A DNA stretch of 24,371 nt from an uncultured Methanomassiliicoccales archaeon (GCA_964588745.1 CAZPQO010000001.1:1-24371); one strand, 5' to 3'; shown: positions 6,357 through 22,889, counted from the stretch's first letter. Notes: generated by a model from the letters alone, not told the origin. Program-made: numbers and translations.

Positions 6357-7682
6357 TCACTTGCAGGACGAAACGAATCTCCGGGCCCAATCTTTTTGGG
6401 ACAGTGCGTTCTGATGCATGTACGTTCCGACGGATGAATTGATTACCATACCGTCTTTCGAATTTATGATGCCCACTCCCCGGGACAGATCGTAACAGTA
6501 AAGAGAATCTTTTTTCGGATACACTTCCGAATAGTGATATTCATGAGCCCTCACGGGCGAATCAAACAAAGGATTGTTTTCGTTGGGTGTCGCCAGAACG
6601 TACGTGGGACCGTGGCGGTTTTCCGTCATCACGGCCTCCCCGTCGAATATCCCGGTCATTCCGTGAACCGTTCCGTCAATGTCCCTGAGACTGTCGCACA
6701 TAGTCAGCAATCCTCCGCATTCCCCGAGTATGGGTTTTCCTTCTTCGGATGCGTTCTTCATGCCTTCGGTGAAATCTTTGTTCGAAGATATTCCGTCGGC
6801 GAAGAGTTCCGGATATCCCCCGCCGAGATAGTACATATCGGCGTCGGGAAGAGAATCCCCCGCAACGGGTGAGAAATGTCTGATTTCGATGCCTGAAGCT
6901 TCCAGACATTCAAGGTTTTCTTTGTAGTAAAAACAGAAAGCGTCATCCAAAGGGACGGCGGCGGTCATCGATGCGTTTCTTTTGGTGTACGGCGACTCGG
7001 TAGGCAGATCCGCATCGGAAGATTCGGCGATGTCCATCAGAACGTTGAGATCCACACCTTCGGCGATTTCCTCGAAAGGCGAGATATCCCAACCGGAATC
7101 CGGTGTGACAAGTCCGGCCTGTCTTCTTTTCGCCGGACCGTTTGGGAGCCTGCGTATCTTACCGACAACTTTCTGTTTGCAGTAACGTTCCGTCACGGCA
7201 TCGATTTTGTCTTCATGCTGCTTTCCCGAAATGTTATTGAGAATTATGCCTTCGATTTTCACATCGGGATCGAAATCGGCGAATCCGTTGATTATCGCGG
7301 CCGCACTTTTATTGAGAGATCTTACATCCACAGTGAGAATCACGGGGAACCCCAACAGCTTGGCGAGTCCCGCGGTGGAACCGACGTCATTGTCGGCCGA
7401 AAATCCTTCGTACAATCCCCTGACGCCTTCGATGACGCACAGATCCGCCCCGCGGGAAGCATAACCCACAACGTTGCGGACGGTATCCTCGTCCATCATG
7501 AAAGAATCAAGATTTCTGCATTCTCTTCCCGATGCGATTGTATGATACATGGGATCGACGAAATCCGGTCCGGCTTTGAAAGCTTGAACTTTGTAATCTT
7601 TCGATAAACGGGAAAGTATCCCCGTGGTTATCGAAGTCTTTCCGACATTGCTGCCGGTTCCGGCTATTACGACTCCCTTCAA
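6357..7682 (-). CDS. cfbB: Ni-sirohydrochlorin a,c-diamide synthase
   Basis: CbiA/CobB family (GKTSIT, FKAGPDFVDP, IEGVRGLYEG, GGGYPE, GECGG). EGVRGLYEG is the CfbB-type variant, and the gene is last in a cfb operon. Confidence 0.9.
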   Translation of the reverse strand: MKGVVIAGTGSNVGKTSITTGILSRLSKDYKVQAFKAGPDFVDPMYHTIASGRECRNLDSFMMDEDTVRNVVGYASRGADLCVIEGVRGLYEGFSADNDVGSTAGLAKLLGFPVILTVDVRSLNKSAAAIINGFADFDPDVKIEGIILNNISGKQHEDKIDAVTERYCKQKVVGKIRRLPNGPAKRRQAGLVTPDSGWDISPFEEIAEGVDLNVLMDIAESSDADLPTESPYTKRNASMTAAVPLDDAFCFYYKENLECLEASGIEIRHFSPVAGDSLPDADMYYLGGGYPELFADGISSNKDFTEGMKNASEEGKPILGECGGLLTMCDSLRDIDGTVHGMTGIFDGEAVMTENRHGPTYVLATPNENNPLFDSPVRAHEYHYSEVYPKKDSLYCYDLSRGVGIINSKDGMVINSSVGTYMHQNALSQKDWARRFVSSCK

Positions 7683-8755: not shown

Positions 8756-9963
8756 GTGTATCCTTCCTTTACAAACAGAATCAACGGCCCTTCGGAATCC
8801 GGGATATCCGGTATTCTTCCCGAACCGTCGGTTATTATCAGTTCCACTCCGTATTCACGGGAAATTTCGATTATGTCTTCCGCATTCAGTTTACTGCAGA
8901 CTTTTCTGTTGACAGGGTCCAACACCGCGACCGCACCGTCGAGAACATTCATTTTTTTGAGAGTTTCGTATGTGCGTTCCACCGAACGTTTTGATATTCC
9001 GGGGTTCCTTTCCTTAACCACCCATCTGTTGTTTTCCCGGTACACTCCGCCCCGGCCTTCCATTCCTTTGAAGGTCGAAAGTCCTTTTTTCAGATCTTCC
9101 GTGGGGGTATCCATGATGCCGCACACGGTCACAGCCATTTCTATGGCATCAAGATATTCGAGAGCAAGATAATCGGAACTCAGGTCCGTTTCGAAACCTT
9201 CGCCGTAATCTGCGCGTATCCTGAGGGATTCGCCGAAACCGGGATTGTTGAGTACTTCGATTCTGTTTCCGTACCCTTCTGTTTTTCCTATGTTGAAAGT
9301 TTTCCAAAAATCTGTTTCGTTGAGAGGAACGACGTTCATGCCGGAAAGAATTTCTTTCTTTCCTTCGGATGCTTTTCTCGTGTCAGCGGCAATCGGATAA
9401 TCTTCCAACAGGTTGGTTATGCATGCGATATCCGCTTTACCGGAACCTCCGAGGGACACTTCGCAGATGAGGATATCATAACCTTCCTTCGGCACCGTCA
9501 GCATATGCGGCGGAGCTATGCTCACCTTTTCTTCATTTGAAAGTCTGCCGTTTTCCCAAAAACCTCTGCCTTTGGAACTGTGAAGAAGCACTTTGTTTCC
9601 TGCAACGGTAAGAATATGAGCCAGTAATCCGCAAAAACCCGTTTTTCCTTTGACGCCGGTAACTTCTATCCTGAATTTGTCGTTCTCCGTGAGTTCGCCC
9701 ACGGCTTGGCTGAAAAACTTCCTTTCGCCGTAAGTTACGCCTTCGAGGAAGCTGTCGGGACAGTGTACCGGCATCAATACAAGGTCGTATTCGCCCGGAG
9801 GCACCTCTTTGTGAACCGAGTATCCTTTATTCCTCAGTCTCAGCAATTCCTCTTCGGGCGTAACCTTGTAGACATCCACACAGGTGACGGAGTCGTCCTC
9901 ATCGGGATAAAGATCCGCGAGGACTCCTCCGCCGTGCACGGTGTCAAGGAGCAGGATTTTCAT
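8752..9963 (-). CDS. cfbE: Coenzyme F430 synthetase (Mur-ligase-like)
   Basis: LDTVHGG N-terminus, EVTGVKGKT P-loop, EVSLGG and NPG motifs. Lies between cfbA and cfbD. Confidence 0.88.
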   Translation of the reverse strand: MKILLLDTVHGGGVLADLYPDEDDSVTCVDVYKVTPEEELLRLRNKGYSVHKEVPPGEYDLVLMPVHCPDSFLEGVTYGERKFFSQAVGELTENDKFRIEVTGVKGKTGFCGLLAHILTVAGNKVLLHSSKGRGFWENGRLSNEEKVSIAPPHMLTVPKEGYDILICEVSLGGSGKADIACITNLLEDYPIAADTRKASEGKKEILSGMNVVPLNETDFWKTFNIGKTEGYGNRIEVLNNPGFGESLRIRADYGEGFETDLSSDYLALEYLDAIEMAVTVCGIMDTPTEDLKKGLSTFKGMEGRGGVYRENNRWVVKERNPGISKRSVERTYETLKKMNVLDGAVAVLDPVNRKVCSKLNAEDIIEISREYGVELIITDGSGRIPDIPDSEGPLILFVKEGYT

Positions 9964-10739
9964 ATTCCGTATTTTTCCAGCCTTTTGGCCAAAACATCCG
10001 CAAGACGGGGTTCTTTGCCTACGGGCATTGCATAGTGGATGTTGATTTCCCTGCCGAAAGCGGTGCTTATGCCTCCGTCACTGTTTGCGGGAATTCCCAG
10101 GGTTTCGGGGACTTCTTCGCCCAGATGGGCGCCGGATGCTATGAACAGGGGAAGAACGGCAACATCGGTGACATCGGTAGCGGCGATTTCCTTCATGACA
10201 TCCTCAATGAAAGGTTCGTTGAATTCATTGAATGCGTGGTAAACGTTGGAATAACCTCTCTCTTTCAACCTGTCGGCGTTGAGCTTGATTATTTCTGCGT
10301 TGTAGGACAGACGGGATCCGTGGCCGACAACCATAATCGCGGCTTTCTTTCCGTTGCAGGATTCCTTGATTCTGTCTTCGAGGATGTCCGTAAGGTTCGG
10401 ATCTTCACCGATGGGTCCTTCGAAGTGTACCGTGACTTCCTTTCCGGCGACAGTGGTTTTTCCGCCTTTGGAGTTTTCGGGTATGTTGAGCTTCTGGGGG
10501 ATGTCCCTTGTGATGTGGAGACCGGATGCAATGAAAAAGGGAATTGCGATTATCTCTTCGATTCCTTCTTTCACCATTTCTTCCAGAACGGTGTCCGCAA
10601 GAGGCATGGTTGTTTCGTTGTACGCGGTCCATACGGGAAGTCCGGTGCGCTCTTTCAATGCATTTGCCTGCTGTTCGACGGCTTCTTTGTTGTGGTTGAA
10701 CCTGGAGCCGTGTCCGATGAATAAAATTCCTCTTTTCAT
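9960..10739 (-). CDS. cfbA: Sirohydrochlorin chelatase, CfbA/CbiX family, tandem two-domain (259 aa)
   Basis: Start re-called to ATG 10739 (MKRGILFIGHGS). Two repeats of GHGSR...NE...P.F(F/I)IASG.H. The upstream part of the 323-aa ORF overlaps cfbC and looks non-coding. Confidence 0.88.
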   Translation of the reverse strand: MKRGILFIGHGSRFNHNKEAVEQQANALKERTGLPVWTAYNETTMPLADTVLEEMVKEGIEEIIAIPFFIASGLHITRDIPQKLNIPENSKGGKTTVAGKEVTVHFEGPIGEDPNLTDILEDRIKESCNGKKAAIMVVGHGSRLSYNAEIIKLNADRLKERGYSNVYHAFNEFNEPFIEDVMKEIAATDVTDVAVLPLFIASGAHLGEEVPETLGIPANSDGGISTAFGREINIHYAMPVGKEPRLADVLAKRLEKYGI

Positions 10740-10753
10740 GTTATCTTCTCTGT

Positions 10754-11530
10754 TTACTTCATTAATCGCATTCCGCCTTCGGAATCTTCCGAACGTCGAA
10801 TCATTTCCTCTGCGAGTGATTTGAAATTCTCTGCCATCACGGAGTCGGGAGCGTGCCTTACCACCGTGGTTCCGGCCGCTTCCGCGTCCTGAACCGCTTG
10901 GTCTCTGGGCAACCGGTAAACAACATCGCAACCCATTTCCCTCGCGGCATCGTCAACGATTCTGTTTTCATCGTCAATGCCTCTGGAATTCTGGATTATG
11001 CCTCCGAACACCGCATAACCGTCCCCGGCAAAGCCGTCCACGGCCTGACGGATGTTGTCCGCGGCGTACAGCGACATCATCTCTCCCGATGTGACCACAA
11101 AAACTTCTTTGGCGTATCCGTTGCGGATAGGCATTGCAAACCCTCCGCATACGACGTCACCCAAGACATCATAGATTATCACATCGGGTTTGACAATGTC
11201 GATTGCCCCCAAGTCTTCCAGTTGATCGAAGGCCGCGATAATTCCGCGGCCGGCGCAACCCGTGCCCGGTTTAGGACCTCCGCATTCGACACAGAACACA
11301 TTGTGTCCCGTATCATGAATAACGTCGTCCAAAGACACGTTGCCTTCCTTCATTCTGTCAAGAACTGTATCGGGTGCTTTGCCGCCCATCAAAAGTTTGG
11401 TGGAGTCGGCTTTGGGGTCGCATCCGATCTGAAGAACCCGGAAGCCCATATCGGCCAATGCATCGCTTATGTTCGAAGAGACGGTGGATTTACCTATTCC
11501 GCCCTTCCCGTAAATGGCAATTCTTCTCAA
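10754..11530 (-). CDS. cfbC: Ni-sirohydrochlorin a,c-diamide reductive cyclase, ATP-dependent reductase subunit (NifH-like)
   Basis: [34 protein letters not shown] and [14 protein letters not shown]. Start re-called to TTG 11530 with GGTGA RBS. Heads the cfb operon, and no nifDK lies nearby. Confidence 0.9.
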
Positions 11531-11584
11531 TAATTCACCAATAGAGTCATACTTAATAATACTTTCAACTTCGTTCGTGCTAAA

Positions 11585-11600
11585 TGGATGGTACATCCAA
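11585..11600. promoter_or_regulatory. Putative operator dyad upstream of the cfb operon (TGGATG-GTA-CATCCA)
   Basis: Perfect 6-3-6 inverted repeat. 14 of 16 bases are identical to the dyad at 16556-16571. It lies 55 nt upstream of the cfbC start. Confidence 0.65.
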
Positions 11601-11638
11601 TGCACTGCGCACTACTCCGATTGATTAAAAGATTGTGT

Positions 11639-13663: not shown

Positions 13664-14293
13664 TCAGAATTCGTCTTTGTTGTAAATCATCGCGTTGCAG
13701 ATTGCGGCGGCAATGTTCGATCCGCCCTTTCTGCCTTTGGCGACGATGTACGGAACATCGGAATCCATAATCTGTTCTTTCGATTCGATTACGTTGACGA
13801 ATCCGACGGGAACGCCGATTATCAATGCCGGTTCGAGTTTGCCTTCATCGATGAGTTCCTTCAGCCTTATCAGCGCAGTGGGAGCGTTTCCTATGGCAAA
13901 GATATTCCTGCCTTTCAACGCCGCGCCCCGTTCCATTGAAACCTTTGCGCGGGTGCAGCCTCTGGCTTTGGCTTCTTCGATTACGGATTCGTCGCCGATG
14001 AAACAATGAGCTTCTCCTCCGAAAGAGGCAAGACGGTCTTTGTTCACACCGGAATAGGCCATTCTTGTGTCAGTTATGATGTTTGCGCCGGAACGTATCG
14101 CCTCAATTCCGATTCGCACGGCATCTTCGGAGAATTCCAGATTGTCCGCGTAATCGAAATCCGCTGAAGTGTGAATACATCTTTTGATTACGGAAAACTC
14201 GGGTTCCGGCCATTTCCTTCCACCCAGTTCGCTTTCTATGATCTCCATGCTGCGTTTTTCGATATCTGCAGGTTTCACATTGAGAATTTTCAT
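13664..14293 (-). CDS. cbiC: Cobalt-precorrin-8 methylmutase
   Basis: IEKRSMEII, RCIHTSADF, IGNAPTAL, IGVPVGFVNV and GRKGGSNIAAAICNA. Confidence 0.95.
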   Translation of the reverse strand: MKILNVKPADIEKRSMEIIESELGGRKWPEPEFSVIKRCIHTSADFDYADNLEFSEDAVRIGIEAIRSGANIITDTRMAYSGVNKDRLASFGGEAHCFIGDESVIEEAKARGCTRAKVSMERGAALKGRNIFAIGNAPTALIRLKELIDEGKLEPALIIGVPVGFVNVIESKEQIMDSDVPYIVAKGRKGGSNIAAAICNAMIYNKDEF

Positions 14294-15030
14294 TGTTCGA
14301 CCTCATATCCTCTGGGCGTGATCATTTTCCCATTCGAAACATAGGTCTGAGAATTGCCTACGATTACAATGGAGAACATATCCACATCGTCGTAAGGAAT
14401 GTTGCCCAGCGTTGCAAGGATTGTGCTTTCTTCCTCTCTCCGTGCGTTTCTCACAATACCCACCGGAGTTTCGGAGGATCTGTATTTGAGCAGAATCTCC
14501 ACGGCCTCGGGAAGATGCTGAACTCTTTTCTTGCTTTTGGGATTGTAAAGACAGACAATCATATCTCCGACGCCGGCGCTGTCGATGCGTTTCATTATCA
14601 GATCATAAGGAGTCATCAAATCGGAAAGACTGATGATTGCCAGATCGTGCATCAGAGGCGCCCCGAGTATGGATGCCGCCGCGGAAGCCGCGGTGACTCC
14701 GGGAACCACGTCCACTTCTATGTCCGCATTCATTTCGTCAACGAGTTGGTATATGATTCCCGCCATTCCGTAAATTCCGGAATCTCCGCTGCTGACCATC
14801 GCCACGTTCAATCCGGTGGATGCGTCCTCTATTGCCGAACGGCATCTTTCCACTTCTCTCATCATACCTGTGGCTTTGTATTCTTTCTCGGGAAAGTATT
14901 CTTTCAGAATATCCACGTAGGTTGTGTAACCTGTAACGATGTCCGCGGCTTCGATTGCGTTCACGGCTCTCAGAGTCATGTCTTCTTTGGAACCGGGGCC
15001 GAATCCGACCACGGTAAGTTTGCCGGACAT
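14290..15030 (-). CDS. cbiH: Cobalt-factor III C17-methyltransferase
   Basis: VVGFGPGS..DMT, GYTTY, GMMREVERC, SSGDSGIYGMAG, HDLAIISLSDLMTP and LYNPKSKKR. Confidence 0.94.
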   Translation of the reverse strand: MSGKLTVVGFGPGSKEDMTLRAVNAIEAADIVTGYTTYVDILKEYFPEKEYKATGMMREVERCRSAIEDASTGLNVAMVSSGDSGIYGMAGIIYQLVDEMNADIEVDVVPGVTAASAAASILGAPLMHDLAIISLSDLMTPYDLIMKRIDSAGVGDMIVCLYNPKSKKRVQHLPEAVEILLKYRSSETPVGIVRNARREEESTILATLGNIPYDDVDMFSIVIVGNSQTYVSNGKMITPRGYEVEQ

Positions 15031-15789
15031 TCACTCCACCGTCCCTTTGCGGTATTCGGTTGTGAATGCTTTGTCATAAAGTTTGGATAAGCTGTACTCG
15101 TCTCCGAGGAAATCACCGACAACCGTCAGTGCAGTCTTGGTTATCCCTGCTTCCTTCACTTTGGAAGATATGTTCTTCAGAGTGCCCGTGACAATCTCCT
15201 GTTCGGGCCAACTTGCCTTGTAAACGACTGCGACGGGAGTGTTTTCTTCGTATCCTCCTTCGATCAGCTGTTCGGTCAGTTCGTCCATGAATCCCACACT
15301 GAGGAAAATAACCATGGTCGCATGGTGGGATGCCAGTTCCGCAATGCTTTCCCCTTCGGGCATGGGTGTCCTTCCTTCCATTCTTGTGAATATGACGGTT
15401 TGACTGACATCGGGAAGGGTGTATTCCTTCTTCAGTGCAGCGGCAGTCGCAAAGGCGGAACTTACTCCGGGGATGACTTTGCTTTCAATCCCCATTTCGT
15501 CCAATCTGTCGATCTGTTCCCTTATGGCACCGTAAATGGACGGGTCCCCGGTGTGAACGCGTGCGGTGTTCAGTCCCTCGGACTCGGCGTTCTTCATAAC
15601 TTCAAGAACTTCGTCCAGATTCATTTCCGCACTGTTATAGATCTTTGCGGTCTTTTTGGCGTCGCTTAATACAGCAGGATTCACCAACGAACCGGCGTAA
15701 ATTATCACTTCCGCCGAATCTATCGCTCTTTTTCCTTTGATTGTCAATAATTCCGGATCTCCCGGGCCGGCGCCGACGAATGTTATCAT
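15031..15789 (-). CDS. cbiF: Cobalt-precorrin-4 C11-methyltransferase
   Basis: FVGAGPGDPELLT, YAGSLVN, RVHTGDPSIYGAIREQ and LPDVSQTVIFTR. Confidence 0.95.
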   Translation of the reverse strand: MITFVGAGPGDPELLTIKGKRAIDSAEVIIYAGSLVNPAVLSDAKKTAKIYNSAEMNLDEVLEVMKNAESEGLNTARVHTGDPSIYGAIREQIDRLDEMGIESKVIPGVSSAFATAAALKKEYTLPDVSQTVIFTRMEGRTPMPEGESIAELASHHATMVIFLSVGFMDELTEQLIEGGYEENTPVAVVYKASWPEQEIVTGTLKNISSKVKEAGITKTALTVVGDFLGDEYSLSKLYDKAFTTEYRKGTVE

Positions 15790-16502
15790 TTTGAATCCTC
15801 GCTTTTATTTTTCTTCACTATGACTGTGGTGAAATATCCGTATTCGCGGTCAACATCGATGGGTCCGATGTATTCTCCGTCCATGCCGATGTTGCTGATG
15901 ACGGTCCCGTTCTCCAAAGGTATTCCGTTCTTTTTCATCATGTCCGCGAGAACCTGCATGGAATCCCAGGCCTTCATCACGACAAGATTGTCGGAAGAAG
16001 CCAGAAAGGAATCCAATCTGCCGTTGTTCTTCTTGGCCATGGGAATCACGGTAAGGTCTTCGTCACCTATCATCAAGGGTATTCTCGCTTCGGCGGCACC
16101 GCCGCAGAAGGATGTGATTCCGGGAATTACTTCTGTCTCGTATCCCAGATTTCTGATCTCCTCGTCAACGTACATGTAAGTGCTGTAAACTCCCACATCC
16201 CCGAGGGAAACCATTGCCACGTCGGAACCGGAATCCAAAACTTCCGTCAGTTCTTTGATGGCTTCGGATCTGCAGGCTTCCCTGACTTTATCGTCGGGAT
16301 TCATGCTGAACAGAAGTTCCAGAATTTTCTTTCCGGACAGGTCGGTTGCTTTCCCTGCTATGTCCAAAGCCGTACTGTCCTCTCCCCGTTTGTGAACAGG
16401 GTAAGCGATCACCGCGGATCGATCAATCAATTCTTTGGCTTTGATTGTGAGAAGTCCCGGGTCTCCGGGGCCCACACTTACGCCATATAATTTTCCTGCC
16501 AT
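15786..16502 (-). CDS. cbiL: Cobalt-precorrin-2 (factor II) C20-methyltransferase
   Basis: LYGVSVGPGDPGLLTIKA, SLGDVGVYSTY, IPGITSF, VVMKA and YFTTVIV. AGGTGA RBS. Confidence 0.92.
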   Translation of the reverse strand: MAGKLYGVSVGPGDPGLLTIKAKELIDRSAVIAYPVHKRGEDSTALDIAGKATDLSGKKILELLFSMNPDDKVREACRSEAIKELTEVLDSGSDVAMVSLGDVGVYSTYMYVDEEIRNLGYETEVIPGITSFCGGAAEARIPLMIGDEDLTVIPMAKKNNGRLDSFLASSDNLVVMKAWDSMQVLADMMKKNGIPLENGTVISNIGMDGEYIGPIDVDREYGYFTTVIVKKNKSEDSK

Positions 16503-16552
16503 CGGATTTCACCTAATCTTATGATTCACCGTACATGCTATACGTTTATTTA

Positions 16553-16573
16553 AGTTGGATAGTATATCCAACT
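16553..16573. promoter_or_regulatory. Putative operator dyad in the cbiL/cbiD divergent region (AGTTGGATA-GTA-TATCCAACT)
   Basis: Perfect 9-3-9 inverted repeat abutting the TATA-like TTTATTTAA (16545-16553). Its core matches the cfb dyad and lies 54 nt upstream of the cbiL start. Confidence 0.7.
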
Positions 16574-16655
16574 GTAATTATCCGATAAGTGTTATAGCAT
16601 GGATAATTCCTCCAATTTAAGGGCTGAGTCAATGTCCGGAACCGAAAAAGACGAG

Positions 16656-17783
16656 ATGTCCGTCAACCAGGGCGGAAAGATACTGAAAAGGGGTCATACT
16701 ACGGGAACGTGTGCGGCGGCGGGATCCAAAGCCGCCGCAATCATGTTGCTGACGGGCAACCCTGTCAACAGTATTGACATTTTGACGCCAAAAGGAATTC
16801 TTCTCGATCTTAAAATCGAAGACATAGATTTACAAAAAGACAGAGTCAGATGCGCCGTAAGGAAAGACGGAGGCGACGACATCGACGTGACACACGGTTC
16901 CCTTGTTTATTCCGAAGTGATTCTTTCCGACGAAGGCACTGAAATCGACGGCGGAATCGGCGTCGGAAGAATAACGAAAAAGGGATTGGATCAACCCGTC
17001 GGAAACGCCGCAATCAACAGAATTCCCAGAAACATGATTGTTGAAGCTTTGGAAGATGTCAGGGACAATCTGAATTACGATAAGGGATTCAATGTAACGA
17101 TATCGATTCCCGACGGCACCGAACTTGCGGAAAAAACTTTCAATCCCCGTTTGGGAATAATCGGGGGAATCTCCGTTCTGGGAACTTCCGGAATTGTCGA
17201 ACCCATGAGCGAAAAGGCAATCATTGACACCATAAAAGCGGAAATGAAAGTCAGAAAGGAGGAAGGTACGGAGACTTTGCTTGTGGTACCGGGAAATTAC
17301 GGCGCAAGCTACGTGGAAGCCATTGACGGTCTCGATCCGGAATCCGCCGTAAGGTGCAGCAACTACATCGGGGAGACTTTGGATTATGCCGCCGAACTCG
17401 GTTTCAAAAATTTATTGCTCATAGGCAATCTCGGCAAACTGGTGAAACTTGCGGGAGGCATCATGAATACGCATTCGAGAGAATCCGATTCGCGCATGGA
17501 AATCCTCGCGGGGAATGCAGCCGTTGCCGGGGCTTCCGTCGACATACTGAAGAAAATCATGGATTCTGTTTCCACGGATGATGCGCTGTATCACATCAAC
17601 GAAGCAAACCTTCTCGACTATGTCATGACCCTCATATCCGAAAAGGCTGAATATCACATGAACCGAAGAACCGAAAATAAAGTGAAATGCGGCACGATGA
17701 TTTTCTCCTCCGAATACGGATTGATCGGGCGTTCACCTTCGTCAAAAGATTCGCTCAAAGAACTGGGAGGTTCGGTACTTTGA
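16656..17783 (+). CDS. cbiD: Cobalt-precorrin-5B C1-methyltransferase
   Basis: LKRGHTTGTCAAA, KDGGDDIDVTHG, TFNPRLGIIGGISVLGTSGIVEPMS and KLVKLAGGIMNTHS. The start could instead be ATG 16632 or 16599. Confidence 0.94.
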   Translation: MSVNQGGKILKRGHTTGTCAAAGSKAAAIMLLTGNPVNSIDILTPKGILLDLKIEDIDLQKDRVRCAVRKDGGDDIDVTHGSLVYSEVILSDEGTEIDGGIGVGRITKKGLDQPVGNAAINRIPRNMIVEALEDVRDNLNYDKGFNVTISIPDGTELAEKTFNPRLGIIGGISVLGTSGIVEPMSEKAIIDTIKAEMKVRKEEGTETLLVVPGNYGASYVEAIDGLDPESAVRCSNYIGETLDYAAELGFKNLLLIGNLGKLVKLAGGIMNTHSRESDSRMEILAGNAAVAGASVDILKKIMDSVSTDDALYHINEANLLDYVMTLISEKAEYHMNRRTENKVKCGTMIFSSEYGLIGRSPSSKDSLKELGGSVL

Positions 17784-18811
17784 TTCATATCGTTGCCTTT
17801 TCCTCCAAAGGTTGCGAATTGGCTTTGAAAATATCCGAAGGATTGGATACGGAGAACAAAGTCTTCTCAAAAACTTCCGGCAATTCTGAAGGTACGGTAC
17901 ACATCGACGTGCCCATATCCCATTGGGCCGGGGAATCTTTCAAAGAAACGGAGGGAATCGTATTCGTCGGGGCTACTGGAATTGCGGTCAGAGCAATCGC
18001 ACCCCATGTGAAAAACAAAGCAAAAGATCCGGCAATCGTATGCATCGACGAGCTCGGAAAATATTGCATTTCTCTGCTTTCCGGGCATCTCGGAGGCGCT
18101 AACGATCTCACACTCAAAATATCGGAAATCACAGGCGCGGAACCTGTGATATCCACCGCAACAGACCTTAACAAAAAATTCTCCGTGGATGTGTTCGCAT
18201 CGTCGAGAAACATGGCCATCGGCAGCATGAATCTCGCCAAAGAAATTTCCGCCGCCGTTCTTGAAAATAAAAACATCGGATTCAAAAGCGATTATCCCTA
18301 CTCGGGAAATCTTCCGGAGAACTTTACCGAATCTGAAAAGAATTTGGGAATCCACGTCACGTCTTCGAACAAATCGATTTTCAAAAAAACACTGAGGCTG
18401 ATTCCTAAAAATCTTATTTTGGGTATCGGTTGTAGAAGAGACACTCCCGAAGACACTGTCAACAGGGTCGTCCGCAAAGTTCTGTCCGACAATGATATTT
18501 CGATCGAAGGCGTAAGACTTATAGCCAGCATAGATTTGAAAAGCGATGAGAAAGGCCTGCTTGAGTTTTCTGAAAAACTCGGCGTGCCCTCGGTTTTTTA
18601 CACAGCGGAAGAGCTTAACACTCTCCGGGGAGACTTCAGCAAATCCGATTTCGTTTTGAAAACAATCGGCGTCGATTGCGTCAGTGAAAGAGCCGCTATG
18701 TTCCCCTCAGCCGAAGGGAAAGTGATTGTTCCGAAAACCGGACTTGACGGCGTAACCGTTGCCGTGGTCAAAGAACCATTTGAATTTAATTTTGGAGTTG
18801 AACCTACTTGA
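17780..18811 (+). CDS. cbiG: Cobalt-precorrin-5A hydrolase
   Basis: Start re-called to TTG 17780 (GGGAGG RBS, overlaps the cbiD stop). FVGATGIAVRAIAP, KAKDPA, LLSGHLGGAN, VISTATD and LGIGCRR. Confidence 0.93.
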   Translation: MIHIVAFSSKGCELALKISEGLDTENKVFSKTSGNSEGTVHIDVPISHWAGESFKETEGIVFVGATGIAVRAIAPHVKNKAKDPAIVCIDELGKYCISLLSGHLGGANDLTLKISEITGAEPVISTATDLNKKFSVDVFASSRNMAIGSMNLAKEISAAVLENKNIGFKSDYPYSGNLPENFTESEKNLGIHVTSSNKSIFKKTLRLIPKNLILGIGCRRDTPEDTVNRVVRKVLSDNDISIEGVRLIASIDLKSDEKGLLEFSEKLGVPSVFYTAEELNTLRGDFSKSDFVLKTIGVDCVSERAAMFPSAEGKVIVPKTGLDGVTVAVVKEPFEFNFGVEPT

Positions 18812-20784
18812 AGAAAAAAGCGCTGATATTCGCGGGCACCACCGAAGGAAGGGAACTGACGGATTTCCTCAGTAAAAACAAGATTGACGTCACGGTGAGC
18901 ACCGCAACCGAATACGGTGAATCCGTTATAGAAATAAACGATCACACAGAAACTGACAGCATACGCGGCGTGGACAACATGGCCGAAAGAATGAAAGAAT
19001 TCGATATTGTGATTGATGCCACCCATCCCTACGCCATAAGAAAATCGGAGCACATCAGGGAAGCTTCAAAAATCAACGGTACTCCGCTAATCAGGATAAT
19101 CCGTCCCGACAGCGACGGAATCGGAAATCCGATAACTTTTCCCGACATACCTTCCGCCGTGAATTACCTCTCGGGAACCGAAGGGAACATATTCGTCACC
19201 ACCGGAAGCAACGAACTGTCCGAGTTCACATCCATTCCCGGCTACAAAGAAAGAGTGTACGCCCGGGTTCTCTCGCTGTCTTCGGTTGCCGAGAAGTGTT
19301 CTGCTCTGGGATTCGAAGGCAGAAATCTGATGTGCATGGAAGGTCCTTACAGCGAAGAACTGAATCTCGCAATGATGAAACATGTTGACGCGAAATACAT
19401 GGTGACAAAGGATTCGGGTTCGGTCGGCGGTTTCGAAGACAAGATGTCTGCCGCCGCAAAAGCCGGCGTCATCCCGATTGTGATCGGCCGTCCCGCGGAA
19501 CATGACGGAATTCCGATGGAAGAAGCGATAAAGGAACTGTCCGAACTGTTCTCAATAGATTTGCCGTCAAAGAAAAGAAAAATTACCATTGCGGGAATCG
19601 GAACAGGAAACGATGCGGGTCTGACATTGGCCGTTATAAACAGTGTTAAAAATTCGAATTTGGTCATCGGCGCGAAAAGAATGCTGGAATGTTTTGATCT
19701 GACGGGAAAAGAAGTTCTCGAAGAATACCGTTCGAAAGAGATTCTGGAATATGTGGAAAATAACCGACAATTCGGCAATATAACGGTACTGATGTCCGGA
19801 GACACGGGATACTACAGCGGCACCAAGAAACTGTTGATTGCTTTCGAAAATGAAGATTATGACATAACCGTGTTGCCGGGAATCTCTTCGATATCATACT
19901 TTTTCTCAAAGTTGGGAGAATCCTGGGATGACGTGCACCTGACCAGCCTTCACGGCAGGGAAGAGAACATCGTGGGTCTCGTGAAACGTCACAAAAGACT
20001 GTTCACGCTCCTGAACGGAGAGGAATCCACACATGAAATGTGCAGAGAACTCATCGAATACAATCTTGAAGACGTGGAAATAGCCATCGGTCAGGATTTC
20101 GGTTCATCGGAAGAAAGAATCGACAAAGGCTCTCCGGAAGAAATATTGAAAATGCCTCTCGGAAAACTTTGCGTCGCGTTCATCAAAAATCCCGATGCGT
20201 CGAACGTAATCCCACTGGGTATTTCCGATGAGGATTTCATACGCGGAACGGCACCTATGACAAAAAGCGAAGTCCGCTCTCTGTCCGTGGTAAAATTAAA
20301 ACTGAACGAGGATTCCGTAATCTACGACGTGGGGGCCGGAACCGGATCCGTTTCCGTGGAAATGGCTTCCGTCGCCCTTTCGGGTCATGTTTATGCCGTT
20401 GAGAAAAACAAAGATGCCGTTTCTCTGATTTCAGAGAATTGTAAAAAATTCGGAACTCCCAACATTGCCGTGGTGGAAGGGTTCGCCCCTGATGCTTTGG
20501 CCGAACTTCCGATGCCCACTCACGCATTCATAGGAGGATCTTCCGGAAATCTGGAATCCATAATCGATGTGCTTCTTGAAAAGAATCCTGACGTCAGAAT
20601 CGTAATCACGTCCGTAACATTGGAAACTCTGTCCGAAACCATGCGTTGCGTCAATGAACTGAACATAACCGAAGAAGAAACGATATGCATGAATATATCA
20701 AGAGCCAGACTTCTGGGCGACTATCATTTGATGACTGCGCAGAACCCCGTTTATATAACGGTCTGCAGAGGCGGTAAGGAATGA
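18808..20784 (+). CDS. cbiJ-cbiE-cbiT: Trifunctional fusion: cobalt-precorrin-6A reductase (CbiJ) + C5-methyltransferase (CbiE) + C15-methyltransferase/decarboxylase (CbiT)
   Basis: aa 1-250: FAGTTEGR, DATHPYA, TKDSGSVGG (CbiJ). aa ~255-465: IAGIGTG, SGDTGYYSG, LPGISS (CbiE). aa ~472-658: PMTKSEVR, YDVGAGTGSVSVE, FIGGSSG (CbiT). One uninterrupted frame. Confidence 0.92.
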   Translation: MKKKALIFAGTTEGRELTDFLSKNKIDVTVSTATEYGESVIEINDHTETDSIRGVDNMAERMKEFDIVIDATHPYAIRKSEHIREASKINGTPLIRIIRPDSDGIGNPITFPDIPSAVNYLSGTEGNIFVTTGSNELSEFTSIPGYKERVYARVLSLSSVAEKCSALGFEGRNLMCMEGPYSEELNLAMMKHVDAKYMVTKDSGSVGGFEDKMSAAAKAGVIPIVIGRPAEHDGIPMEEAIKELSELFSIDLPSKKRKITIAGIGTGNDAGLTLAVINSVKNSNLVIGAKRMLECFDLTGKEVLEEYRSKEILEYVENNRQFGNITVLMSGDTGYYSGTKKLLIAFENEDYDITVLPGISSISYFFSKLGESWDDVHLTSLHGREENIVGLVKRHKRLFTLLNGEESTHEMCRELIEYNLEDVEIAIGQDFGSSEERIDKGSPEEILKMPLGKLCVAFIKNPDASNVIPLGISDEDFIRGTAPMTKSEVRSLSVVKLKLNEDSVIYDVGAGTGSVSVEMASVALSGHVYAVEKNKDAVSLISENCKKFGTPNIAVVEGFAPDALAELPMPTHAFIGGSSGNLESIIDVLLEKNPDVRIVITSVTLETLSETMRCVNELNITEEETICMNISRARLLGDYHLMTAQNPVYITVCRGGKE

Positions 20785-22136
20785 AACATCCGAGATTTCT
20801 CATCGCCGCACCTTCCAGCGGAAGCGGAAAAACAACGGTGACCTGCGGAATTCTCCAAGCCCTTGTGGACAGAGGATTAAAGGTATCGTCATTCAAATGC
20901 GGTCCCGATTACATCGATCCCATGTTCCACGGCCGTGTCATCGGAACCAAATCGAAGAATCTGGACGCTTTCTTCTGTGACGACAATCTTCTGAAGTATC
21001 TTTTCGCACGTTCCGCGGATGAGACGGACATATCGGTCATTGAAGGAGTCATGGGATTCTATGACGGAATCAGTATAACGTCTTCCGAAGCGAGTTCCTA
21101 CGACGTGGCCGGAAAAATGAAAGCTCCCGTGATATTGGTTGTCGACTGTAAAGGAGCCAGTGTCTCATGCATACCTATGATCAAAGGATTCGCCGATTAT
21201 GTTGAAAACAGCAACATCAAAGGCGTTATTCTGAACAGAATGTCCAAACACGTTTACGAAGGGCTCAAAACAATGATAGAGGAACAAACCGGAGCCGAAG
21301 TCATCGGTTACGTTCCGAGACTTGACGATATTGCCATTGAAAGCAGACATCTGGGTTTGGTTATGCCGGATGAAGTCGTGATGCTCAAGGAAAAGCTGTC
21401 GAAACTCGCAAAGGTTCTGGAGGAGACTATTGACATCCAACGTTTGATTCAGATTGCGAATGATGTGGAAAATCTTGAATGGGAAGAACCTTCCTTTAAC
21501 AGATTGAACAACAAAATCAGAATAGGTCTGGCACGCGACGATGCGTTCTGTTTCACCTACGAAGACAATGTTTCGTTGCTGAAAGACTGCGGTGCGGAAA
21601 TCGTGGAATTTTCTCCTCTGAACGATGAGAAATTGCCCGAAGACATTCACGGACTCATATTCTCCGGAGGATATCCCGAGCTTCACGGAGAAAAACTCAG
21701 CACGAACAAACCCATGCTGAAGGATATCAGAGGGAAACTTGACGCGGGAATGCCCTGTATGGCCGAAAGCGGGGGTTTCATGTACCTTCACGAGGAATTG
21801 GAAGGTATTGACGGCAAAATGTACCCGATGGTCGGCTTCGTCAAAGGAAGGTGCTTCCACGCAGGAAAACTGTCCCGGTTCGGATACGTCACGTTAAGCC
21901 CGAAGGAAAATCAGATGCTGCCTCAGGGAAGCATCGTAAAAGGTCACGAATTCCATTACTGGAACACGGACAACGACGGGAAAAGCTGGCAGGCGGAAAG
22001 GACCTCAGGACGGAAATACGATTGTATTCACGGATCCGAATCCCTTATGCTGGGATTCCCCCATGTGTTCTATTATTCCAACCCGGAACTGCCTTATTCA
22101 TTCCTTGTCGCCTGCAACAGGCATGCCGAAGAATGA
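20781..22136 (+). CDS. cbiA: Cobyrinate a,c-diamide synthase (glutaminase Cys replaced by Ser)
   Basis: SGSGKTT, FKCGPDYIDPMFH, IEGVMGFYDG, SRHLGL, GGYPE and GHEFHY. The motif reads AESGG instead of AECGG. Last gene of the cbiDG(JET)A operon. Confidence 0.9.
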   Translation: MKHPRFLIAAPSSGSGKTTVTCGILQALVDRGLKVSSFKCGPDYIDPMFHGRVIGTKSKNLDAFFCDDNLLKYLFARSADETDISVIEGVMGFYDGISITSSEASSYDVAGKMKAPVILVVDCKGASVSCIPMIKGFADYVENSNIKGVILNRMSKHVYEGLKTMIEEQTGAEVIGYVPRLDDIAIESRHLGLVMPDEVVMLKEKLSKLAKVLEETIDIQRLIQIANDVENLEWEEPSFNRLNNKIRIGLARDDAFCFTYEDNVSLLKDCGAEIVEFSPLNDEKLPEDIHGLIFSGGYPELHGEKLSTNKPMLKDIRGKLDAGMPCMAESGGFMYLHEELEGIDGKMYPMVGFVKGRCFHAGKLSRFGYVTLSPKENQMLPQGSIVKGHEFHYWNTDNDGKSWQAERTSGRKYDCIHGSESLMLGFPHVFYYSNPELPYSFLVACNRHAEE

Positions 22137-22889
22137 TGCAATGTCTTTCAGCATTCCGGTGAATGTGAATTCGGTTGCGATTATGTCGGGTTCTCTTCCG
22201 AATTCCCGCAGCTCATAAGCAGTGGGAGTTCCGATTGCGGCGACCTTTACTGAATCCATGAGTGCTGTCGTTCGGTCACCGAACTTTTCCTTCATCTGAG
22301 CGTAAAAAATCCTTGATGATTTCGGACTTGTGAAAGCCATAACGTCCAAATCTCCGTTTTCGACAGAATCCATTATTTCCGTCAGCTCGGGAGTGATTCC
22401 GAACTCTTCCAATCTGTATGTGGCTATTGTGACAACCTTTGCTCCAGCTTCGGAAAGTCCTTCGTCAAGAACTTCGGTTCCGCTGTCGGATCTTATCAAA
22501 AGCACGGTCTTTCCGTTGACTCTTCCTTTCAGCATGTCCACTATGCCGTATGACGAGTACTCGGAAGGCATCATGTCGGATTTCACACCGGCATCGATCA
22601 ACGCTTTCTCGGTGGCGGGTCCGATGGATACCACATTTATATTTTCAAAAAGAACCGGGAATTCGTCTCCGAATTCGCCGATGCACTTTTCCACCGCGGT
22701 AATCGAACCGAAAACCGCAAAGGAAGCTTTGCCGGAGGTCAGGCAATCCCTTATTTTTTGGAATTCTTCCCTGTCCCCCGTAATTATTTTCATGGATGGG
22801 GCACCCAAAACCCGAAAACCCATTTCTTCCGCTTCGCGAACGGCGTTCCTGAGTCTTTCTTCGGGTCTTGTGAACCCCAATCCGATCAT
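22098..22889 (-). CDS. hemD: Uroporphyrinogen-III synthase
   Basis: FTRPEER, FGSITAV, SIGPATEKAL, LLIRSDSG, TYRL, FTSPKS and AIGTPTA. Directly downstream of cobA. Confidence 0.9.
   Translation of the reverse strand: MIGLGFTRPEERLRNAVREAEEMGFRVLGAPSMKIITGDREEFQKIRDCLTSGKASFAVFGSITAVEKCIGEFGDEFPVLFENINVVSIGPATEKALIDAGVKSDMMPSEYSSYGIVDMLKGRVNGKTVLLIRSDSGTEVLDEGLSEAGAKVVTIATYRLEEFGITPELTEIMDSVENGDLDVMAFTSPKSSRIFYAQMKEKFGDRTTALMDSVKVAAIGTPTAYELREFGREPDIIATEFTFTGMLKDIASFFGMPVAGDKE

Follow-up and report, generated by a model that had tools for sequence, protein, structure and literature searches.

Cobyrinate a,c-diamide synthases of the CbiA/CobB family (NF002204, TIGR00379) consist of a dethiobiotin-synthetase-like P-loop amidoligase joined to a GATase_3 domain of the class I amidotransferases. 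The nucleophile of the latter is a Cys within the motif (A/G)-E-C-G-G. No solved structure of CbiA, CobB or CfbB was found in a sequence search. Among solved structures, that of GatD from the MurT/GatD complex (5n9m, 6gs2) comes nearest to the C-terminal domain studied here. GatD belongs to the same CobB/CobQ-type subfamily and has a Cys-His dyad, oxyanion glycines and a glutamine-binding Arg, and lacks a triad Glu. Its dyad residues are C94 and H189, and the C94A, H189A and R128A mutants are all inactive (PMC5871853). A second related system is mammalian CPS1, an amidoligase that uses free ammonia and has a conserved class I glutaminase-like domain, in which Ser stands in for Cys and the triad is otherwise complete. 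The human enzyme, with Ser294 at the site of the catalytic Cys, is unable to use glutamine and has retained the inactive domain (PMC4655335). The ancestral tunnel of CPS1 is blocked. Here we describe a CbiA encoded by an uncultured Methanomassiliicoccales archaeon on a 24,371-nt stretch of DNA (GCA_964588745.1 CAZPQO010000001.1:1-24371), the whole of which is called the window below. It shares with CbiA/CobB both domains, the place in the operon and all family-invariant residues but one. In the clade to which it belongs the nucleophilic Cys has been replaced by Ser, or by Gly in one sub-lineage. GatD differs in being a separate subunit and in having Cys94 where the residue here is Ser.

The cbiA product of the window scored 449.1 bits against NF002204 (cut-off 254) and 365.1 bits against TIGR00379 (cut-off 261.4), and Pfam recognized the CbiA nucleotide-binding domain and GATase_3 (PF07685, 81.7 bits). 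The best Foldseek matches of the amidotransferase domain were GatD 5n9m (E = 6e-12), CTP synthase and HisH. In the amidoligase domain G16, T18, D43, D46, E88 and N152 are invariant in an alignment of 75 orthologs that includes window CbiA. K17 and T18 are conserved in the same alignment, and K17 is present in 150/150 representatives of the family. The gene is the last of the operon cbiD-cbiG-cbiJET-cbiA, where its ATG overlaps the stop codon of the preceding cbiJ-E-T (ATGA). Judged by its profile scores, domains and operon position, window CbiA is a full-length, two-domain member of the CbiA/CobB family.

Residue 330 of window CbiA lies in the peptide MPCMAESGGFMYLH. In a profile of the 75 orthologs, the segment 'laeCGGf' falls on the catalytic Cys of both PdxT (FATCAGV) and GatD (TICGGY). 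In an AlphaFold2 model (mean pLDDT 92), residue 330 is situated between strand 326-329 and helix 331-335, which is the nucleophile elbow. Window CbiA does not have the nucleophilic Cys of the (A/G)-E-C-G-G motif at this position. An earlier reading of the window, made without database searches (the sequence-only reading), had proposed that a Ser encoded by AGC, one base from TGC, occupies the position of the glutaminase nucleophile, and that the synthetase motifs and the downstream His are intact. Codon reading and translation confirmed the Ser codon and its distance of a single base from TGC. The profile alignment and the elbow of the model agree with the assigned position, and both GSGKT and H428 (GFPH) are kept.

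Contigs from landfill (two studies), soil, wastewater and food fermentation cover positions 21768-21770 at 99-100% identity and show no alternative base. Among the best 120 database relatives, all those at least 70% identical to window CbiA lack Cys330 and all the more distant ones have it. Expansion of the 90%-identity clusters gave 27 distinct Cys-less sequences in nine clusters, 25 with Ser and two with Gly. In a maximum-likelihood tree these 27 sequences form one clade (support 100/98), composed of two well-supported subclades and having a Cys-bearing sister. The names on the nearest database proteins place the clade in the Methanomethylophilaceae (Methanomassiliicoccales). Outside the clade, Cys330 was found in 108/108 archaeal orthologs and in all 76 alignable sequences of 79 further, mostly clostridial CbiA relatives from genome contigs. 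The ortholog alignment that the sequence-only reading had put forward as a check shows Ser or Gly well beyond a single assembly. A sequencing or assembly error or a single-strain allele, which the same reading had left room for, is ruled out by the presence of AGC in contigs of five studies and by the sharing of the change among independent assemblies across the whole clade.

The codons at position 330 differ between the two subclades. All 12 Cys-bearing archaeal relatives whose DNA was examined use TGC. One subclade uses AGC (Ser), with GGC in its Gly sub-lineage, and the other uses TCA or TCT (Ser). The Gly330 sub-lineage (P0006/P0128) was found on five contigs and its operon is intact. A single step leads from TGC to either AGC or TCN, and two or more steps separate AGC from TCN. 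In the most parsimonious history Cys changed to Ser twice independently (two steps), because a single change combined with a switch of codon family costs three steps. The strained backbone of the elbow residue (PMC5871853) probably leaves room for small residues only, and the small-residue neighbours of TGC at a single step are two Ser codons and one Gly codon. The two codon families alone are no proof of selection for Ser, since Ser accounts for two of the three small-residue routes and independent losses have led to Gly at least as often.

Purifying selection on cbiA was estimated from the ratio of nonsynonymous to synonymous substitution rates (dN/dS). Over the whole gene, pairwise dN/dS was 0.06-0.10 within the clade and 0.09 in a Cys-bearing pair. 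The corresponding values were 0.04-0.09 and 0.07 in the synthetase domain, and 0.06-0.125 and 0.126 in the amidotransferase domain. Amino-acid divergence of the C-terminal part was 1.14 times that of the N-terminal part in the clade. The factor was 1.08 for the nearest Cys-bearing clades and 1.27 for all Cys-bearing sequences, a comparison that rules out a relaxation confined to the amidotransferase domain. The cbi and hem genes are intact in the window and in the loci of seven relatives within the clade, including the Gly330 lineage. Decay of the gene or of the B12 pathway is ruled out by the intact operons together with the low dN/dS. The proposal of a decaying B12 branch is refuted on the same grounds and by the lack of relaxation in the amidotransferase domain. 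Window CbiA has its nucleophile replaced and the domain kept under purifying selection, which is one mark of a CPS1-like state.

All the other family-invariant residues are kept in the clade, namely G296/G297, E329, G331/G332, H389/E390/H392 and H428. The oxyanion glycines are present: G296/G297 and G331 are invariant in the 75 orthologs as well as in the set of 150 representatives, and G297 matches G60 of GatD in the profile alignment (GatD numbering according to PMC5871853). His428 was found in 75/75 orthologs and 25/25 full-length clade members, where its codon turns over between CAT and CAC. It lies 98 residues past the nucleophile position, which agrees with the spacing of about 95-100 residues for the catalytic His. 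Arg366 is nearly invariant in the family and present in all clade members (codons CGG, CGA, CGT or AGA). It is the probable counterpart of GatD R128, the profile alignment being off by one or two positions. The turnover of the codons of the kept residues indicates that the domain, and specifically its catalytic His, is still under selection. Tyr430Phe, at the canonical position of the triad Glu, was considered as a coupled change and rejected, since Phe is found in the Cys-bearing sister clade too and the residue is variable family-wide.

A survey of the family was made with 150 CbiA proteins, one representative per 50%-identity cluster (149 full-length and one truncated). Cys330 is present in 141 of the 150. 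Eight of the 149 full-length proteins (~5%) lack it (P0178, P0181, P0202, P0250, P0255, P0263, P0267 and P0280), and have Gly (five), Ser (two) or Ala (one) instead. The family tree needs nine state changes, and its well-supported branches force at least eight independent losses. The catalytic His has also been lost, to Gln, Tyr or Cys, in five of the eight Cys-less proteins versus one of the 141 with Cys (Fisher p = 6e-7). Joint loss of Cys and His is, as far as sequences tell, the signature of a dead glutaminase site. Three Cys-less clusters have 11, 20 and 177 members, all of which keep the non-Cys residue. The independent losses show no preference for Ser over Gly, though two of the three small-residue routes lead to Ser.

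Gene context was examined at three of the Cys-less loci (L093, L094 and L095). In the lineage of Clostridiales bacterium S5-A14a (P0280, KGF08917.1), CbiA has Ser330 together with His428Cys and is encoded inside a complete hem/cbi operon. The CbiP of that operon, two genes downstream of cbiA with cbiB and cobD between, keeps its Cys (GICGG). A CbiA with Ala330 and His428Gln, of the archaeal-type P0178 cluster, is encoded in a cbiD-cbiG-cbiJET-cbiA operon. At the third locus (Ser) the only neighbour is a CobC-like phosphatase. The other Cys-less CbiA proteins resemble that of the window in being full-length, in lying, some of them, in B12 clusters and in having the nucleophile replaced by Ser, Gly or Ala, and their losses are independent. 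They differ in that most also lack the catalytic His and/or Arg366, whereas the window clade keeps every other active-site residue. Taken at the level of sequence, nucleophile loss is a recurrent natural state of CbiA and is not peculiar to the window.

The reading we favour is that CbiA of the window clade is glutaminase-inactive and ammonia-dependent in the manner of CPS1, and we give it about an even chance of being right. Upon loss of the Cys thiol, the amidotransferase domain would no longer be an efficient glutaminase, that half-reaction being lost or crippled, and the synthetase domain would use free ammonia to amidate cobyrinate at its a and c acetates. The glutaminase-like domain would be retained for folding, for inter-domain contacts or as an ammonia path. 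His428 and the residues of the glutamine pocket may be retained for such roles, which could be the binding or deprotonation of NH4+ at the tunnel entrance or an allosteric binding of glutamine. The C269S mutant of CPS is reported to be glutaminase-dead and to show allosteric glutamine binding. The change most likely arose through relaxed selection on the nucleophile alone in ammonia-rich habitats, with only Ser, Gly and Ala tolerated in the strained elbow.

This reading is based on the stable loss of Cys throughout the clade, its recurrent loss in the family, the Gly and Ala replacements, the loss of His elsewhere in the family, the CPS1 precedent and the habitats. The window sequence was detected in metagenomes from landfill, wastewater, sludge, bioreactor and fermentation, which are habitats usually rich in ammonium. 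CbiA and CobB are said to accept ammonia in vitro with a millimolar Km, in work attributed to Fresquet et al. in 2004 and Debussche et al. in 1990. The Gly330 sub-lineage with its intact operon indicates that at least one member of the clade can do without a side-chain nucleophile. The likeness to CPS1 has its bounds: CPS1 is a eukaryotic enzyme with an unrelated synthetase domain and pathway, and ammonia use is experimental in CPS1 and inferred for CbiA. An ammonia-dependent CbiA was among the proposals of the sequence-only reading. It stands as the best-supported one through recurrence, CPS1 and the habitats, and its support is indirect, drawn from sequence and analogy. No report of an ammonia-dependent or Cys-less CbiA was found in the openly accessible literature. 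Going by its motif, the 'glutamine-hydrolysing' part of the annotation of window CbiA is probably wrong.

Several observations weigh against an inactive glutaminase. The remaining glutaminase-site residues, including R366, are conserved in the clade across saturated synonymous divergence, and dN/dS of the amidotransferase domain equals that of the Cys-bearing relatives. The conservation of the site, unlike the state of five of the eight other Cys-less lineages, is the pattern expected of an active site that still works. The invariance of His428 and the pocket would be poorly explained by ammonia dependence, since other Cys-less lineages have let these residues go. Ser has been kept in eight of the nine clusters with synonymous turnover (TCA/TCT), which suggests that it is preferred over Gly or Ala in the clade. 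Glutamine-dependent amidation has also not been generally abandoned, since CfbB, and CbiP in the bacterial case, keep their Cys.

The same conservation would be expected of a serine-type glutaminase, in which Ser330, activated by His428, is the nucleophile and glutamine is still used. This would be a Cys-to-Ser switch in a class I amidotransferase, and we regard it as possible but rather unlikely. The S51 peptidases share the fold and have a Ser nucleophile. The strict conservation of the other active-site residues with codon turnover (His428 and Arg366 in 25-26 clade sequences) and the constraint on the domain, as strong as in Cys-bearing relatives, are in favour. So are the two Ser codon families, which mean that Ser either arose two times or survived a switch of codon family, and the fact that only one of the nine clusters moved to Gly. 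Two codon families are, however, expected by chance if only small residues fit. The Gly330 sub-lineage has an intact operon, and the other Cys-less CbiA proteins have mostly Gly or Ala and have lost the His. Engineered Cys-to-Ser variants of class I amidotransferases have no glutaminase activity, and CPS1 with Ser294 is inactive (PMC4655335). In addition, the acidic member of the triad, which serine hydrolases normally require, is missing from the CobB/CobQ/GatD subfamily (PMC5871853).

A very unlikely alternative is that another protein with glutaminase activity, for instance CfbB, CbiP or a separate subunit, docks on CbiA or channels ammonia to it. CfbB is the paralog encoded in the same window, and GECGG was found in 118/120 CfbB homologs, including every clade member, several of them on contigs shared with a Cys-less CbiA. 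The sequence-only reading was correct that CfbB of the window keeps its Cys (TGC). The retention of this Cys throughout the clade shows that the loss of the nucleophile is specific to CbiA. A glutaminase would thus be at hand in CfbB of the same gene cluster, and in the CbiP encoded near the bacterial Cys-less cbiA. However, no clade-specific extra gene was found near cbiA, the gene order being identical in the loci of Cys-less and Cys-bearing relatives, and both CfbB and CbiP have synthetase domains and tunnels of their own. We know of no partner-glutaminase interaction for CbiA. The proposal that NH3 is drawn from CfbB is unsupported, as no partner gene near cbiA is specific to the clade and the one relevant fact is that CfbB keeps its Cys.

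Slightly less probable still is a remodelled site, in which Cys358 would serve as a relocated thiol nucleophile, or His or Asp at position 360 would complete a Ser-His-Asp/His triad. Of the clade sequences that include the site, 26/26 have Cys358, as against 0/108 of the other archaeal orthologs, the other Methanomassiliicoccales having V, T, A or S. Asn360 is invariant in the 108 archaeal orthologs, those of the other Methanomassiliicoccales included, and is replaced in the clade by His (one subclade) or Asp (the other), and the flanking positions 357, 359 and 361 vary freely. Against this, 12 Cys358 and 14 Asp360 were counted among the 79 mostly clostridial CbiA (76 alignable at position 330, all with Cys), and position 360 is variable family-wide. 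The coexistence of Cys358 and Asp360 with Cys330 in bacterial CbiA indicates ordinary variation that is compatible with the standard mechanism. There is a negligible chance that the Ser codon is a sequencing or assembly artefact, an allele of one strain or a sign of a B12 branch turning into pseudogenes. TGC to AGC is a single base change, but AGC occurs in contigs of five studies within a monophyletic clade of 27 sequences, with dN/dS of 0.06-0.10 and intact operons.

The positions of the features are given in Table 1.

Table 1. Features of the window that bear on CbiA and its paralog CfbB (positions counted from the first nucleotide of the window).
Feature	Position	Strand	Remarks
cbiA (cobyrinate a,c-diamide synthase)	20781-22136	+	451 aa; HMM and Pfam
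P-loop GSGKT (G14-T18), ATP-dependent amidoligase (synthetase) domain, aa 1-240	20820-20834	+	
Class I amidotransferase domain (GATase_3, CobB/CobQ/GatD-type), aa 245-451	21513-22133	+	PF07685, Foldseek
G296-G297, oxyanion-strand glycines (SGGYPE), retained	21666-21671	+	
Ser330, codon AGC, at the nucleophile-elbow position A-E-S-G-G (TGC = Cys in relatives)	21768-21770	+	
Cys358-x-His360, clade-specific, on the inner face of strand 354-374	21852-21860	+	
Arg366, probable counterpart of glutamine-binding GatD Arg128, retained	21876-21878	+	
His428 (GFPH), catalytic His of the Cys-His dyad, retained	22062-22064	+	
Other anaerobic corrin-ring genes	13664-20784	cbiC, cbiH, cbiF, cbiL (-); cbiD, cbiG, cbiJ-E-T fusion (+)	all open
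cfbB (Ni-sirohydrochlorin a,c-diamide synthase paralog)	6357-7682	-	GECGG; Cys322, TGC at 6719-6717

In the window, cbiC-H-F-L lie upstream of the operon that ends with cbiA, and a convergent hemD-cobA-hemC group lies downstream. At their 3' ends, cbiA (+) and hemD (-) have 39 nt in common (22098-22136), and an overlap of this length is also found in relatives, for example at 11318-11356 of locus L001. The same order of corrin genes, with Pfam assignments, was found in relatives (L001, L003, L005 and L006). A single ORF of 658 aa (18808-20784, +) fuses CbiJ, CbiE and CbiT, and its length is 653-667 aa in all relatives examined. A food-fermentation run (X25), labelled metatranscriptomic but listed as 'WGS RANDOM', gave contigs of ~99% identity over the 3' half of cbiA and over hemD (21083-22400). 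These contigs may reflect transcription of the two, the library type being ambiguous.

CbiA proteins of Methanomassiliicoccales are 46-55% identical to those of Lachnospiraceae and other Clostridia (window; loci L019-L092), and the best NCBIfam model for window CbiA is the bacterial-type PRK01077. This clostridial likeness and the bacterial-type model suggest that cbiA, or the operon in its entirety, was transferred between domains of life. One CbiA homolog of 631 aa (P0044) has the elbow segment AECGGFMYLH twice, at positions 341 and 499, together with a DJ-1/PfpI domain. Its doubled elbow would be either an internal duplication or an assembly artefact.

Farther off in the window are five cfb genes for coenzyme F430, in the order cfbB-D-E-A-C, and all cbi, hem and cfb genes are open and of normal length. 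The best NCBIfam model for CfbB is NF033195 (F430_CfbB), with 472 bits, under the curated cut-off of 560. Public annotations name CfbB homologs cobyrinate or hydrogenobyrinate a,c-diamide synthase despite their location in cfb clusters. Two Methanomassiliicoccales CfbB homologs (P0419 and P0441) have GEDGG, in which Asp replaces the nucleophilic Cys. The longest ORF of the double-CbiX (CfbA-like) gene (9960-10931, -) starts at TTG and overlaps the upstream NifH-like cfbC (10754-11605, -) by ~180 nt. Its first ~65 residues are rich in Arg and Gly, and the true start of the gene, judged from the sequence, is probably the internal Met before KRGILFIGHGS.

Beyond the sequence-only reading, the present analysis adds the clade-wide distribution of the change, its two Ser codon families with a Gly sub-lineage, and its recurrence across the CbiA family. 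The surprise is moderate, because ammonia use by CbiA/CobB has reportedly been seen in vitro and CPS1 is an exact precedent. Cys-less CbiA proteins are automatically annotated as glutamine-hydrolysing cobyrinate a,c-diamide synthases. The clade described here is the most informative case among them, since only the nucleophile has changed, and it can be regarded as a natural experiment. It bears on which residues of a glutaminase domain serve non-hydrolytic roles, such as the ammonia path or domain coupling, and on whether a Ser-His pair can work in the class I amidotransferase fold. If Ser330 were a working nucleophile, the clade would represent a stable natural switch of nucleophile, with the Cys ancestor and both the AGC and TCN families visible in living relatives. 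It would then also be a live example of the route through cysteine by which, as Brenner is said to have proposed, the codon families of the 'two serines' are linked. If about 5% of CbiA clusters, including a clade of methyl-reducing methanogens, lack the nucleophile, the first two corrin amidations would in many organisms draw their nitrogen from a donor other than the textbook one, and B12 production in these organisms may depend on ambient ammonia.

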